This document shows, one piece after another, positions 4,829 to 38,833 of a stretch of DNA of 64,000 nt. The first letter of the stretch is position 1, and each line of letters starts with the position of its first letter. This DNA is from Escherichia coli. Lineage in GTDB: Bacteria > Pseudomonadota > Gammaproteobacteria > Enterobacterales > Enterobacteriaceae. The stretch lies in the NCBI RefSeq assembly GCF_030013595.1, contig NZ_CP122768.1. One strand, 5' to 3'. The position numbers and the translations under genes are program-made. Under the pieces are notes generated by a model that saw only the letters and a list, made by a program, of their open reading frames with translations, did no database searches and was not told the DNA's origin.

Positions 4829-5070
4829 CCATTCTGGACTACATCGCTGCCAATCCGGGTTGTAGCAGTGGAGAAATCGCCGCAGCACTGAATACACCAA
4901 CCACAACCATTAATGCGGAGCTACGCCGTCTCTGGCGCAGCGGTTTAGTCACAAGAAAAGAGCGCAAAACAGGCGGTCGCTTTTCTTATCAGGTAAACCC
5001 GATGCCGTTTGGGTGTAGCAACCCACTAACCCAGATGTTCAACCAGCTACTGAGGGAAATCAGAGCATGA
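4825..5070 (+). CDS. Hypothetical early protein (possible winged-helix DNA binding)
   Basis: 81-aa ORF, overlaps previous stop. Confidence 0.45.
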   Translation: MTILDYIAANPGCSSGEIAAALNTPTTTINAELRRLWRSGLVTRKERKTGGRFSYQVNPMPFGCSNPLTQMFNQLLREIRA

Positions 5071-32232: not shown

Positions 32233-32396
32233 GACTCTTAAATGTATTAGTCCAGACACGTACTAGCGGGCTAAACGGCACAGTCTTATCTGACCATCTG
32301 CCCCTGACACAGAGCAGACGGTCCTTGATCTTACCCACTAATAATGGACGCGCGACTAATATAATTTATTGCTTTTTATTTATACCTCACTGAGAT

Positions 32397-33032
32397 TTAG
32401 CGAGCTAATATATTCAAAGAATTTAACAATTGAGTGTCGAGTGTTTCAGTTGCAGGAATCGGTAATCCATTCGCAATGCGGTAATTTTTCACAGACAGCC
32501 TTGTGGATGGCCCCATTATGCCGTCAATATTTCCGTTATAAAATCCCCTGTCCAGCAATGCGAACTGAACTCGCATAATCAATCGCTTACGTTTCTCTGC
32601 ATCAGAAGCAAGCCCATTACTCGTACGGTTAACCTCTGAAGTTCCAACAGAACTCGTGTTAGTGGTTCTATTATTATCGTTAGAACGAAGTGCACGCACC
32701 GAGGAAGAGGACGATGAGGAACTTGCACCTGAACTTGAAGAACCAGATGAACTTGGTGAGCTGTATGTTTTTGGATAATAGGGGGTACTTCCACCATAGT
32801 ATCCACCACCTGATGAGGATCTATGAGAGCTATGGCTCCTATGAGAACTATGGCTTCGATGCCCTGCGATATAAAATGGGACTTCCGTGTTAAGTGGAGC
32901 TATCACTAAATCATGCTCATTAAGAGTCATACCAGGTAAATCACTCGCTCCTGTAGATGAATCGCTTGCCCATACAGAATTGTTGAGAGCCAAAAATCCC
33001 GGAAGTAGAGCAGCAAAATTAAACTTTTTCAT
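32397..33032 (-). CDS. hxsA: His-Xaa-Ser repeat protein HxsA: secreted precursor with Gly/Ser/Tyr-rich linker and C-terminal peptidoglycan-binding domain
   Basis: Signal peptide MKKFNFAALLPGFLALNNSVWA; HRSHSSHRSHSSHRS repeats; C-terminus LLDRGFYNGNIDGIMGPSTRLSVKNYRIANGLP resembles PG_binding_1; ATGA overlap with hxsC. Confidence 0.8.
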   Translation of the reverse strand: MKKFNFAALLPGFLALNNSVWASDSSTGASDLPGMTLNEHDLVIAPLNTEVPFYIAGHRSHSSHRSHSSHRSSSGGGYYGGSTPYYPKTYSSPSSSGSSSSGASSSSSSSSVRALRSNDNNRTTNTSSVGTSEVNRTSNGLASDAEKRKRLIMRVQFALLDRGFYNGNIDGIMGPSTRLSVKNYRIANGLPIPATETLDTQLLNSLNILAR

Positions 33033-34141
33033 AAAATTGGTCTCGGTGATTGATGAAAACGGCCTTTTGAGGAACTGAAATAGCCAGCACAGGAAGGCTT
33101 CTGAGTACATTCATCACATTCTTTTGGATAGTAATTTTTCCAATCAGAGATCGACTGAACAGCAAGCTCCCTAGCCCTTTCAGGAAGATAACACAAAGGA
33201 TAATTAAAAATTGTCAGAGGTATGCCTGACCTGTATGCAGCGTCTATGGCAGAGATTATTTTCTCACTATAACTACTGTGATCAATGAAGATGGTGGACC
33301 AGTTTTTTCGTGCCCAACCGATAGGCTCCAACCCCATAAGGGAAATCTGATTGATGTTGGAGAACACACGGCCAGCGAATTCTACGATATCATCCAATTC
33401 GGTATAGTTAGCCAGTGTAGGAATAACTCTAAGTTCGATATTAATCCCCAAGTTTCCTGCATTGATTAACCCTTTAACCGTTTCATTAAATGCGCCATCA
33501 CTCCCTACCAGATGATCATGCACAAGTGGTCTTGATGAGTAGAGCGGGATACCAAAGGTGATTTTGATCTTTTTGCTTCGCTTTGCCATTTCCTGTGTAA
33601 AGTTGGTATCAGCAAATTTGCGTCCGTTTGTTAAAACATGTAAAGCAGTATCTGGTGAATTCTCGATGATAAAATCAATGAAGTGAAGGAAGTCATCCCC
33701 ATATAGCAAAGGTTCACCACCGCTGACCCCAACAACTCCGTTCAAGCCAAATGAAGCTATAGCAAGAGCTGATTGGGTAAGTAGCCAGTCATCATTTATT
33801 TTCTTTGGTGGCTGCGAACAAAACAGACACAAGTTATTGCAGCGTTCCGTAACTAAGACAGTATTATGATTGGCTTTGCGTGACAGAATAACGCGTATCA
33901 TATTGCCATTGTTGATTATCCCAATATCTCCATCTTCAATTGACTCAAATAATTCAGTGCTAATAACAGAGAAATCAAAGCATGGTGGAATGGCATCATT
34001 ATTGCCTTCAGCAACTACTAGCAAATTGGGCAAAAAGAATAAAGGGTTCACTGGTTTTTGTTTGCATAACCGATAGAACCCCGTGGGCACGTTCTCTGTA
34101 GAAGCAAAATGAAAGATATCGTTCCTGATAACCTCAGACAT
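33029..34141 (-). CDS. hxsC: Radical SAM maturase (HxsC-type assignment; B/C assignment tentative)
   Basis: CNNLCLFC (Cx3Cx2C) radical-SAM cluster motif; C-terminal CDEC...C cluster; overlaps both neighbours. Confidence 0.8.
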   Translation of the reverse strand: MSEVIRNDIFHFASTENVPTGFYRLCKQKPVNPLFFLPNLLVVAEGNNDAIPPCFDFSVISTELFESIEDGDIGIINNGNMIRVILSRKANHNTVLVTERCNNLCLFCSQPPKKINDDWLLTQSALAIASFGLNGVVGVSGGEPLLYGDDFLHFIDFIIENSPDTALHVLTNGRKFADTNFTQEMAKRSKKIKITFGIPLYSSRPLVHDHLVGSDGAFNETVKGLINAGNLGINIELRVIPTLANYTELDDIVEFAGRVFSNINQISLMGLEPIGWARKNWSTIFIDHSSYSEKIISAIDAAYRSGIPLTIFNYPLCYLPERARELAVQSISDWKNYYPKECDECTQKPSCAGYFSSSKGRFHQSPRPIL

Positions 34142-35522
34142 ATGCCCATCCTTTTAGCATCTCAGCCTTCGAACCACCCTCTGAGATGCAGTTCATCAGA
34201 TACCTGAACATCCCCTTGTGATATTGACAAAACGTTGAACGACTCCTATCACCGACAGGCTCACCCTGTACACTTATGTTCTGGCATGGATCTGAACCAC
34301 AAAATGGTTGATATGCACATGTATCACAACCTGGCAGAGCAAAATTGAACGATGAACTCAATACTGCGTTATAGTAAGGACTATCAGAAAATGATAGCGT
34401 CTTAACTTCACCCGCACTGAACTCCGTTTCAGGATTCACCTTCTGCAACATACGGCTCTCATCGCTACCATATACTCGACCGTCATAATTGAAAAGAATA
34501 CTGTTAAGCACGACTCCACTTGGAGACTTTAAATCCGCATAACCACTAAAACCGGGATTGAAGATCCTTTTCAGATGAATGGAGGCCGAATGTTCCACAA
34601 CCCTTATCCCTTCATTATTAATCTTAAGGATTTCATCTATCAACGAGGCATAGAAGCTGAAGTATTCGTCCATAGAAAAGGTGAAAGAAGCTTTTTGTGC
34701 AAACCCATAGGGACTAACAGGTCGGATAAACATGTCCTTGAGACCAAGAGACAAGTGAGCCTGAACAATCGATTCAGGACGTCTGATAAGCTCTTTAGTA
34801 ACTGTAGTAACCGTTGCAACGCGGCCAGCACCTAAAGAGTGTTTGATAGCCTCTACCCCTGACACTGTTCTACTGTACGCAAGCCCACGACCAAGAATTC
34901 GATTACTGTTGTGAACAACTTCCTCACCATCAAGCGACACAGAGAACGTTATGTTCCGGTCTCTCGACCATTCAATCATATCCTCATTCAAGACAGACAG
35001 ACTTGATGCCACCACCATCTCAAAATTGGTTCTTCCCAGCGTTTCAGCACATTGATCATAGATGCTCTGAATTAAATCAAACCGCAAGAGAGGCTCCCCA
35101 CCCTGTATCTCTATTTTGTAAGGTGGCGTTGATAGTTTTTTAATAGCCGAAATAATATCGGGGATGAGCTCAGGATTTAGGTCGTAACCTGAGGCATTAA
35201 CAGAAGCTCTACTAACCTGGCAATACTTGCATGTATGGTCACAACGTAATGTGGGTACAATCATGAAAATTGGCCTGACAGCCAGTTCATTCATCAATCG
35301 TTTTGCAAAAGCAGAACTTAAAGCATAGGGAGTTATAGCAGATGAGCTTTCACTGGTTATGAAAAGCTTACTTTCTAGCACGTTTGATTGCTCCGAACTA
35401 ATTCGCTCATCAGAAAGATCAATAAGGTCTTGCTCACCAATGAAATGATGAAAACCTGCAAGGTTGCTTATAAACACCTGTCCATTAGGCAATCTGTCAA
35501 AATTAAATGGCATCAATTCCAT
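34134..35522 (-). CDS. hxsB: Radical SAM/SPASM maturase (HxsB-type assignment; B/C assignment tentative)
   Basis: CDHTCKYC (Cx3Cx2C) motif plus C-terminal Cys-rich SPASM-like region (CDTCAYQPFCGSDPC...C). Confidence 0.8.
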   Translation of the reverse strand: MELMPFNFDRLPNGQVFISNLAGFHHFIGEQDLIDLSDERISSEQSNVLESKLFITSESSSAITPYALSSAFAKRLMNELAVRPIFMIVPTLRCDHTCKYCQVSRASVNASGYDLNPELIPDIISAIKKLSTPPYKIEIQGGEPLLRFDLIQSIYDQCAETLGRTNFEMVVASSLSVLNEDMIEWSRDRNITFSVSLDGEEVVHNSNRILGRGLAYSRTVSGVEAIKHSLGAGRVATVTTVTKELIRRPESIVQAHLSLGLKDMFIRPVSPYGFAQKASFTFSMDEYFSFYASLIDEILKINNEGIRVVEHSASIHLKRIFNPGFSGYADLKSPSGVVLNSILFNYDGRVYGSDESRMLQKVNPETEFSAGEVKTLSFSDSPYYNAVLSSSFNFALPGCDTCAYQPFCGSDPCQNISVQGEPVGDRSRSTFCQYHKGMFRYLMNCISEGGSKAEMLKGWAYV

Positions 35523-35836
35523 TATGAAAGCCTCTCATCAACACTGCGAAGCACTTTATGGACAATAGAGTCTCTCAACGCCCCTGTTTTATGCTGTAGC
35601 TTTTCTCGCAAAGAGTAATCATTAAGCAGCCTATCGAATTCATAAAGGAATTTGGGATTATCGTTTTCAAAAGAGATTATCCAGTGGGAAACGTCTTCAT
35701 GGAGTTTCCATCGAGTAAGCGGAGTCATCCAATATAGACTATTGCGTATAACCCATTCAGAATATAGTTCTTTCTCAAACACTCTTTCGCTCATTGCAAT
35801 TATCTTCCAATACAAATATTCATGATCAGCAACCAC
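35522..35836 (-). CDS. hxsD: HxsD, small LLNDYxLRE-motif protein of the His-Xaa-Ser system
   Basis: Contains FDRLLNDYSLREKL; GTG start at 35836 (alternative ATG at 35794); stop overlaps hxsB start by 1 nt. Confidence 0.7.
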   Translation of the reverse strand: MVADHEYLYWKIIAMSERVFEKELYSEWVIRNSLYWMTPLTRWKLHEDVSHWIISFENDNPKFLYEFDRLLNDYSLREKLQHKTGALRDSIVHKVLRSVDERLS

Positions 35837-35871
35837 TTTAAAGCGGATTTTTCCTATGGCAACAATAATAT

Positions 35872-35891
35872 AACATATCCATAGATATGTT
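35872..35891. promoter_or_regulatory. Perfect 8-bp inverted repeat (AACATATC-n4-GATATGTT) upstream of the hxs operon; candidate operator
   Basis: Located about 35-55 bp upstream of the hxsD start in the hxs/ogr intergenic region. Confidence 0.35.
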
Positions 35892-36046
35892 ACAGATGCC
35901 TTGTTTCCCGTTGACTAATACATCACAACGTTAGTAATGGCTATCACAATTGTGAACTTCCACTTTTCACACAAGACAAGCTGTTAATTGGAATCTGTAT
36001 CAGTACAACTTAGAATATCGGAAGCACCACAGTAAGGGAGGTCGCT

Positions 36047-36307
36047 ATGTTCCGTTGTCCGCTTTGTGGCGCATCCGCCCGAATCCGCACCAGTCGTCCG
36101 GAAAATGATTCAAACACCGTGCGGCAAAAGTATTACCAATGTAACAACCTAGAATGCGGCGTATGCTTCTCAACACTGGAAGCTTTCCATAAATTCACAT
36201 CAAAACACGCCTCCGGCGCTCACTCTTCAGAAGGTATCCCGTGGCATGAACTGCCAGCTTCACACAAAGGAAACAATCAGATGAGTTTGCCCTTACCTCA
36301 AAATTAA
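36047..36307 (+). CDS. ogr: Late transcription activator Ogr (C4 zinc finger)
   Basis: MFRCPLCGASARIRTSR...YYQCNNLEC parallels P2 Ogr (MFHCPLCQHAAHARTSR...YHQCQNVNC). Confidence 0.9.
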   Translation: MFRCPLCGASARIRTSRPENDSNTVRQKYYQCNNLECGVCFSTLEAFHKFTSKHASGAHSSEGIPWHELPASHKGNNQMSLPLPQN

Positions 36308-36367: not shown

Positions 36368-36631
36368 ATGGTCGGAGGGAATACCCGAAGGCCAGATGTG
36401 GAAAGGCCCCGGAAAACATTTCTGTTTAACCGAGGCCCTAACCGCATTACCTTGACAAGTGAAAGGTTAGCGCCTCTCCGGAAAAGGAGCAAGTGCTATG
36501 TCGCAAAAATCGCTTACGGCCATCATGTTCTGCGTGACGGCAATCCTCATCATCTGGATGTTGCACGGTTCGCTGTGCGAAATACGGATGAGATTCTGGG
36601 GAGCGGAGTTTGCGGCGTTCTTACAGTGTAA
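36368..36631 (+). CDS. Mok-like overlapping reading frame (translation-coupling ORF for the hok-like toxin)
   Basis: 87-aa ORF in another frame spanning the hok-like gene, as in hok/mok loci; may not yield a stable protein. Confidence 0.35.
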   Translation: MVGGNTRRPDVERPRKTFLFNRGPNRITLTSERLAPLRKRSKCYVAKIAYGHHVLRDGNPHHLDVARFAVRNTDEILGSGVCGVLTV

Positions 36632-36638
36632 GCAGTAA
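36498..36638 (+). CDS. hok: Hok/Gef-family type I toxin (46 aa)
   Basis: AAAAGGAG ribosome-binding site; MSQKSLTAIMFCVTAILIIWMLHGSLCEIRMRFWGAEFAAFLQCKQ has the Hok pattern (TM helix then SLCEIR...AAF). Confidence 0.7.
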   Translation: MSQKSLTAIMFCVTAILIIWMLHGSLCEIRMRFWGAEFAAFLQCKQ

Positions 36639-38266: not shown

Positions 38267-38833
38267 TTAAACCACCACGCGCTCTTTCATCCAGCCATAG
38301 ACAAACGACTCATTGGCCTCGCGTTTCTCTGCCAGCTCCAGATAACGCTCGCCCTGCGTACAGTTCAGGGCTTTCACCAGTACCAGTTCACCATCCCTGC
38401 TGCGATTTTTCAGATATGCCCGTAATGCATTAAGAGTACGCGGCCCGATGCGTCCATCAGCATCCATATCCGGATAGAGTTTCCCGCGCAGGTTGAAAAC
38501 GTTCAGCCAGCGCTGAAGCATTCTGGACGCCACAGTTGGCCCCATGTTCACGCCCGTATCGCACAACTCTGCGGCAATATCCGGAGACAGGTCCTCAACC
38601 TGGTCGAATCGTGGTCCGTACCAGTAGTCCGCCTCGAGTATTTCCAGCGCCTGCCCACGCGTCAGGTCACGCATATCGCCCTGATAACCGTGTGCACGGG
38701 CAACTTTTTCAGTGATGCCCCATTTAGTCGGACCACCTTTATCATCCGGGTGATTGACGTAACCGCCCTCTTTTCCCAGAATTTCGTCAAAAATTTCATC
38801 TTTCGACTTCATATCAGCGCCTTCGTAATACAA
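38267..38833 (-). CDS. Endolysin, GH108-type lysozyme with peptidoglycan-binding domain
   Basis: N-terminal EGGYVNHPDDKGGPTKWGIT block typical of GH108 phage lysozymes; follows holin-like genes. Confidence 0.7.
   Translation of the reverse strand: MYYEGADMKSKDEIFDEILGKEGGYVNHPDDKGGPTKWGITEKVARAHGYQGDMRDLTRGQALEILEADYWYGPRFDQVEDLSPDIAAELCDTGVNMGPTVASRMLQRWLNVFNLRGKLYPDMDADGRIGPRTLNALRAYLKNRSRDGELVLVKALNCTQGERYLELAEKREANESFVYGWMKERVVV

Follow-up and report, generated by a model that had tools for sequence, protein, structure and literature searches.

The anti-phage system HXS (HxsDBCA) has recently been described (Li et al., Nat Commun 2026; PMC13128918). Its periplasmic effector HxsA stops phage DNA entry once it has been matured by HxsB and HxsC, together with HxsD; pull-downs revealed an HxsC-HxsD complex that is required for this maturation (PMC13128918). 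The system is very broad: it blocked 110 of 113 coliphages, is found in about 27% of Klebsiella genomes, and has the gene order D-B-C-A in 99.6% of cases. HxsB, HxsC and HxsD were undetectable when expressed from the native promoter (PMC13128918). The paper contains nothing on promoter, operator or regulation (PMC13128918).

The window analyzed here, a stretch of 64,000 nucleotides from Escherichia coli, carries the same four genes in the same D-B-C-A order, all scoring above the NCBIfam equivalog cutoffs; its HxsA combines five HxS repeats with a peptidoglycan-binding domain. An earlier, sequence-only reading of the window had named these genes and the divergent ogr correctly: HxsD, HxsB, HxsC and HxsA match the equivalog models, and the product of the divergent gene matches the Pfam Ogr/Delta zinc finger. 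The clone studied in the HXS paper came from strain MEM and is numbered for a 92-aa HxsD, so its promoter variant differs from that of the window (PMC13128918); the residue numbering tells only that the cloned MEM variant (CP012378) is not the window variant.

Our subject is a perfect palindrome upstream of hxsD, which the sequence-only reading had taken for the operator of a dimeric regulator that makes hxs expression conditional. We give an even chance to a plainer account, in which the palindrome is the -35 element and spacer half of a weak, probably constitutive promoter borne by the hxs cassette, with a symmetry that is lineage-specific and not demonstrably selected. As it stands, the palindrome would be an ordinary promoter feature. 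An operator role under a host repressor, with all its versions taken together, is possible but, judged from the comparisons below, somewhat doubtful.

The hxs cassette as prophage cargo

The features of the region are collected in Table 1. An identical locus in E. coli O26:H11 11368 is annotated likewise by RefSeq and lies inside a P2/P88-like prophage, in which the tape measure, tube and sheath genes on one strand are followed by gpD on the other strand, and then by hxs, ogr, hok/gef and the host gene ihfA. The corresponding Hok/Gef-family toxin ORF of the window, which is annotated in the identical O26:H11 prophage, is at 36498-36638, just downstream of ogr. The O26:H11 prophage adjoins ihfA; the window instead continues with phage-like genes (for instance a lysozyme-like ORF at 38267-38833).

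Table 1. Features of the hxs control region, operon and flanks, in window coordinates, with the evidence for each.
Feature	Position	Strand	Evidence
hxsA, His-Xaa-Ser repeat effector, peptidoglycan-binding domain	32397..33032	-	TIGR03979, 161 bits; PG_binding_1; RefSeq start (longest ORF reaches 33110)
hxsC, radical SAM maturase	33029..34141	-	TIGR03977, 398 bits
hxsB, radical SAM/SPASM maturase	34134..35522	-	TIGR03978, 559 bits
hxsD, 90 aa, first gene of the operon	35522..35794	-	TIGR03976 equivalog, 91 bits (cutoff 50); RefSeq of identical locus
Second palindrome CCGCTTTAAAGTGG, in predicted 5' leader, about +12 to +25	35833..35846	-	Pairing, RNAalifold, single-sequence fold
Predicted -10 hexamer TATTAT, adjoining the hxsD-proximal arm	35865..35870	-	Promoter scan, alignment
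Perfect palindrome TAACATATC-CATA-GATATGTTA	35871..35892		Sequence and repeat finder
Block TGTAACATA, invariant in 15 of 15 upstream variants	35886..35894	-	Alignment (columns 8-16)
Predicted -35 hexamer GTAACA, in the ogr-proximal arm	35888..35893	-	Promoter scan; same call in related loci
Right-hand boundary of the hxs cassette (approximate)	35955..35960		Right side is phage DNA shared with P88-like prophages that have other cargo
Predicted ogr promoter TTGGAA-17-TAGAAT, apart from the palindrome	35988..36016	+	Promoter scan; flank common to a SIR2-cargo prophage
ogr/delta-like zinc-finger late activator gene	36047..36307	+	PF04606, 52 bits; RefSeq annotation

The longest hxsD ORF begins at a GTG at 35836, from which the sequence-only reading had counted a 210-bp region shared with ogr. 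Related cassettes have GCG at this place and an in-frame TAG downstream, and all HxsD homologues start about 90 codons ahead of the hxsB overlap. Because the GTG is unconserved and an in-frame stop follows it in related cassettes, the true hxsD start is the ATG at 35794 (90 aa), in agreement with RefSeq. The palindrome does lie between hxsD and ogr as had been described, but with this start the intergenic region measures 252 bp and the palindrome is 78-98 bp upstream of hxsD.

P88-like (Xuanwuvirus-type) prophages have a cargo site at the gpD-ogr junction (window 32233-35960; L267 552-4592; L268 4499-4542), because related prophages are empty there or carry SIR2 and ATPase genes instead of hxs. 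The site is empty in NZ_CP027312, where gpD is followed directly by ogr, 42 bp apart; in NZ_CP073589 it holds a SIR2 gene and an ATPase gene, and in the window hxsDBCA. Relative to gpD and ogr the cargo has the opposite orientation; it is A+T-rich, with 36-44% G+C vs. 52-58% in the tail genes.

The limits of homology place the palindrome 65-85 bp inside this cargo. Homology to other P2-like prophages and phages begins at 35955-36006 and runs rightwards only, through the ogr promoter and gene, while homology to the Klebsiella plasmid cassettes stops at about 35960-35965. An upstream region about 80% identical to that of the window is found with hxsDBCA on some 210 Klebsiella IncF plasmids, and also in an IS-flanked E. 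coli chromosomal island, in Buttiauxella agrestis and on a metagenome contig, nowhere with ogr or gpD. Because the promoter accompanies hxsDBCA on plasmids and islands that have neither phage gene, the palindrome belongs to the mobile hxs cassette rather than to the phage or ogr. At the right-hand edge of the cassette (35944-35955) there is another perfect palindrome, the 12-nt TCACAATTGTGA; it is unconserved, with a one-base insertion in Klebsiella (TCACCAATTGTGA) and a substitution in Buttiauxella.

Location in the hxsD-ogr intergenic region is the only point in favor of a phage-side element, at which Ogr, the prophage repressor or some other lysogen protein would bind and so couple hxs or ogr to the state of the phage. 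The earlier suggestion of a link to ogr and to lysogeny was of this kind, and the comparison largely refutes it: the palindrome is cargo DNA that is present without ogr or gpD, P88-like prophage homology starts only to its right, there is no second copy of the palindrome in the prophage, and the predicted ogr promoter is a separate one. We regard phage-side control as very improbable. A search for Ogr-dependent late promoters found no TGT-N12-ACA anywhere in 35500-36200.

The palindrome within the predicted hxs promoter

Each arm of the palindrome is 9 bp long (TAACATATC at 35871-35879, GATATGTTA at 35884-35892), and with the 4-nt spacer the total is 22 bp. The repeat had been reported as the inner 8+4+8 at 35872-35891, AACATATC-CATA-GATATGTT; the letters were exact and the span slightly understated, as perfect pairing extends by one base on either side. 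Shuffling the 252-bp hxsD-ogr intergenic region 5000 times with dinucleotides preserved gave a perfect repeat with arms of at least 9 bp and a loop of at most 10 nt in 1.4% of cases, and one with arms of at least 8 bp in 4.7%. Over the whole 64-kb window 23 such repeat/loop combinations (about 13 distinct repeats) were observed vs. about 4.7 in shuffles, which at this scale were of an approximate first-order Markov type and not exact dinucleotide shuffles. The palindrome is unlikely at its own spot and unexceptional for a 64-kb scan.

We found no second copy within the 64-kb window, the best further match there having 3 mismatches, and nothing else near-identical in 5426 E. coli genomes; among the 45 E. 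coli genomes with a whole copy, the palindrome has 100% identity. Viral contigs scanned with the pattern AACATAYC-N4-GRTATGTT yielded 108 matches, close to a rough chance estimate and in unrelated contigs, and a literature search with the arm sequences and "operator" returned only coincidental primers. A 47-nt relic of the hxs promoter is present at 5001-5047 of plasmid pTW14425_123.7k (L002) and on three other ETEC plasmids; it corresponds to window 35873-35919 with one mismatch, and is found without hxs genes, between IS remnants, with an IS end adjoining the first arm of the palindrome.

A promoter scan upstream of hxsD gave, on the hxs strand, GTAACA-17-TATTAT with 9 of 12 consensus matches. 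A second candidate with the same score, TTGCCA...TAAAGT, loses its -10 in relatives, leaving GTAACA-17-TATTAT as the only conserved one of the two; our scan recovered a promoter of this type at every related locus. For comparison, 25 genomes of different species, together with viral and metagenome contigs, supplied 15 distinct upstream variants. Among relatives the -10 reads TATCAT, TATCCT or TATTCT, with T1, A2, T3 and T6 invariant (TATnnT), and outside the invariant block of Table 1 and TATnnT the 15 variants are 77-87% identical. The palindrome overlaps this best conserved of the predicted promoters, covering the -35 hexamer and the whole 17-bp spacer and adjoining the -10; from the hexamers we infer a transcription start near 35858, which would put the center of the palindrome at about -23.5.

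On the account that we prefer, a P2/P88-like prophage has taken up the hxs cassette at its gpD-ogr cargo site, together with the cassette's predicted sigma-70-type promoter. The ogr-proximal arm would hold the -35 hexamer inside a 9-nt block that never varies among relatives, the hxsD-proximal arm would merely fill the 17-bp spacer up to TATTAT, and the operon would be transcribed constitutively at a low level. The comparison maps a predicted hxs promoter to GTAACA-17-TATTAT, in a control region that is carried along when the cassette enters prophages, IncF plasmids or islands.

The same position, centered near -23.5 of a predicted promoter, is one where repressors bind. A host-encoded dimeric repressor of Enterobacteriaceae might recognize the half-sites (with conserved outer AACATA/TATGTT) and occlude RNA polymerase, so that hxs expression would stay low and rise on some physiological signal; we consider this rather unlikely, although the low local chance of a 9+9 repeat counts in its favor.

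Promoters of a different kind were seen in more distant hxs operons. In those of Erwinia, Pantoea, Photorhabdus and Rosenbergiella (L011, L014, L016, L017, L019, L027, L028) the near-consensus promoter, AATTTACA-17-TAnnAT, is far from hxsD, about 160-195 nt upstream, so that the implied leader is about 160 nt long. The Erwinia locus L011 also has a different palindrome, CAGAATA-AGAA-TATTCTG, after its -10, and its otherwise unalignable leader has the 13-mer AATATTCTGTAAC in common with the Serratia locus L006, where it overlaps the -35 block.

Conservation of the symmetry and of the leader

The palindrome is symmetric in one lineage of cassettes, here group A, which consists of the window type, a Buttiauxella locus (L010), a metagenome locus (L055) and the Klebsiella plasmid/island type. 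Arm complementarity is 9/9 in the window, 8/8 in L010, 8/8 in L055 and 7/8 in Klebsiella; the last, which is the commonest variant, has one arm change that is uncompensated. Within the group the arms vary at 2 of 18 positions, vs. about 34% of all non-coding columns, although half of these 18 positions are the -35 block and so are constrained anyway; the central 4 bp vary at 2 of 4. For a host repressor these are favorable figures: the repeat is perfect or nearly so in four variants from three genomic contexts, and constant arms around a variable center are the pattern expected of half-sites with a free spacer.

Its sister lineage, group B, is found in 39 E. coli genomes, about 17 metagenome loci, Klebsiella oxytoca, Kluyvera and Enterobacter; two Serratia loci are variants related to it. 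Group B keeps the -35 block and the -10, with a spacer 1 bp shorter (16 bp, TATTAATTAAATGGTG), and has lost the hxsD-proximal arm, reading TTAATTAAATGGTG in its place; only CAT...ATG and an A+T core are still symmetric. Cassettes with HxsB at most 73% identical have unalignable upstream DNA and no such repeat. These two observations weigh against the host repressor, whose supposed second half-site was lost while the promoter was kept, and whose element is absent from the unrelated upstream DNA of other hxs lineages. Most matches of a loose promoter pattern in metagenomes were due to chance; BLAST filtering left about 20 true hxs loci.

Group B agrees with the window at 8-10 of 15 positions in the hxsD-proximal arm plus loop and at 53-60 of 74 in the adjacent leader; for the other group A variants the figures are 11-12 of 15 and 58-66 of 74-76. 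By this measure the arm and loop are no better conserved than the neighboring leader, which, like the mismatch in the commonest variant, speaks against half-sites. Pair counting found one inner pair changed on both sides between lineages (C-G to T-A), a point for the host repressor, and three pairs that simply break; an RNAalifold consensus over the variants does not recover the 35871-35892 repeat. Because the sister lineage keeps the promoter without the second arm and the Klebsiella mismatch is uncompensated, we judge that selection on the symmetry is not supported. The dyad, limited to one cassette lineage, would most likely be fortuitous or the result of quasi-palindrome "correction" that copied the conserved arm; such a template-switch correction is proposed because the differences cluster in the second arm.

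A hairpin with similar outer arms was noted elsewhere. In Dryocola, Buttiauxella gaviniae and Serratia plymuthica (L020, L021, L022), a long hairpin AAAACATAAGCCATT-CT-AATGGTTATGTTTT lies 21-51 nt upstream of hxsD. Its outer arms are AACATA/TATGTT, as in the window palindrome, at other spacing and position; this may be coincidence or a common motif.

The palindrome could also act through its structure, as a hairpin in transcribed RNA, as a DNA cruciform, or as a target for recombination or IS insertion. Its folding energy in single-stranded DNA is -6.2 kcal/mol (z = -5), the Klebsiella change would leave a G-U wobble in plus-strand RNA, and in the ETEC plasmid relic an IS lies exactly at its edge. 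These points are offset by its place upstream of the predicted start, with no better promoter found farther upstream, and by its stem, which is A+T-rich and weak, has no covariation and elicits no RNAalifold prediction; a structural role seems quite improbable. As an intrinsic terminator it was rejected: there are 0 terminator-like sites in 35600-36200, and the stem has G-C at 2 of 9 pairs and no T run.

Comparative support is better for the second palindrome, CCGCTTTAAAGTGG, in the predicted leader, which is probably an RNA hairpin. Across the variants 97% of its cells are paired, and two pairs have independent compensatory C-G to U-A changes, so that the Klebsiella/L055 type reads CTGCTTTGAAGCAG and Serratia CCGTTTTAAAACGG; RNAalifold independently predicts the hairpin at 35833-35846. 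The conserved parts of the hxs control region would then be the 9-nt -35 block and this hairpin, not the striking palindrome. RNAalifold also reports a conserved helix of 35794-35803 with 35822-35832 (minus strand), in which a few pairs are changed on both sides. It pairs the segment just after the hairpin with bases through the A of the hxsD start codon, and on this model could limit translation initiation.

Candidate regulators and known operators

The cassette itself encodes no regulator, and in none of its contexts (prophage, plasmid, island, Buttiauxella, metagenome) is there a linked regulator gene. The operator claim keeps the location, since the palindrome is in the predicted hxs promoter where a bound dimer would block RNA polymerase, and loses the expectation of selection and of a linked regulator. 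For the host repressor, the missing partner gene adds to the lack of any related site in the window or in the E. coli genomes. To our knowledge the palindrome fits, in sequence and spacing, none of the consensus sites for LexA, Fur, CRP, FNR, ArcA, GntR, DeoR or Zur, nor those for IscR (type 2), NsrR, tetO, AcrR, HipB, NarL or ModE.

The product of the first gene might itself bind the palindrome as a dimer. HxsD is small, its gene is first in the operon, and the element travels with the cassette. The fold predicted for HxsD, a strand and a helix followed by two strands and a long helix (pLDDT 90), matches no solved DNA-binding structure significantly, the best Foldseek hit in the PDB being a designed beta-sheet heterodimer with an E-value of 0.02, and HxsD has no Pfam DNA-binding domain. 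HxsD has moreover a known partner, HxsC, in the complex needed for HxsA maturation (PMC13128918), and group B HxsD is about 80% identical although its promoter is without the repeat. Autoregulation by HxsD is therefore, in our view, a very remote prospect.

Conditional expression, the other half of the operator claim, is a poor fit for a system that bars DNA entry and is needed before infection (PMC13128918), and such a pre-existing barrier would gain little from tight repression. The failure to detect HxsB, HxsC and HxsD from their native promoter counts on the side of the host repressor; moreover, the cloned HXS system does not have the promoter variant of the window, so constitutive expression is for this locus something that we infer. 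Should the palindrome be an operator after all, host physiology would be linked to a constitutive-type defense, in one lineage only.

Four boxes of E. coli K-12, one at mntH, one at mntS and two at mntP, are what we take to be MntR sites; two published studies, of 2001 and 2011, are reportedly the source for MntR sites at these boxes. The mntH box, AAACATAGC-AAAG-GCTATGTTT (verified in NC_000913), has the same 9-4-9 layout as the palindrome and is identical to it at 14 of 18 arm bases (7 of 9 per arm). A matrix built from the four K-12 boxes only, their sequences confirmed in the genome, gives the palindrome 16-17 bits, the top score in the 64-kb window (the next is 5.6) and above any in 175 kb of other loci (maximum 11.7). 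The palindrome could accordingly be imagined as a weak Mn(II)-MntR box through which manganese status tunes an operon with iron-sulfur radical SAM maturases.

We think this reading improbable as well. The K-12 boxes themselves score 28-32 bits (leave-one-out, 21-29), and all four keep a core TAGC-N4-GCTA, where the palindrome has TATC-N4-GATA, with the invariant core G/C replaced by T/A. The Klebsiella variant has TATC/GGTA, the core position varying again. Conservation is complementary, hxs keeping the outer AACATA and the MntR boxes the inner ATAGC, and no MntR-like box is found upstream of hxsD in any other lineage. From these sequence comparisons MntR is better treated as a lead than as a membership. 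Slightly less improbable is the broader proposition that the palindrome is an operator for some host metal- or redox-sensing dimeric regulator, with an MntR-like protein as the best lead, that sets the level of HXS; if true, the physiological state of the host, such as its manganese or iron status, which is relevant to the two iron-sulfur radical SAM maturases, would tune anti-phage immunity in one hxs cassette lineage.

Set beside promoters and operators of known type, the palindrome has partial likenesses to several. Late promoters of the P2 family, under Ogr/Delta control, have a TGT-N12-ACA dyad near -55 and a poor -35. The likeness is of a dyad beside an ogr gene in a P2-like prophage, and the palindrome by coincidence holds ACA-N12-TGT; this order is everted, however, and the element is cargo-borne and present without ogr. 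MerR-type promoters have an over-long spacer of 19-20 bp. They resemble the hxs promoter in having a dyad in the -35/-10 spacer, unlike which the spacer here is 17 bp, and 16 bp in group B. Operators of repressors that overlap the sigma-70 core (LexA, Fur, TetR-type) come nearer, through a 22-bp dyad with half-sites of about 9 bp and a center near -23.5, but the second half-site is lost in the sister lineage and there is no linked regulator here. Of known operators the E. coli MntR box comes closest, with identical geometry; the palindrome departs from it at the invariant core G.
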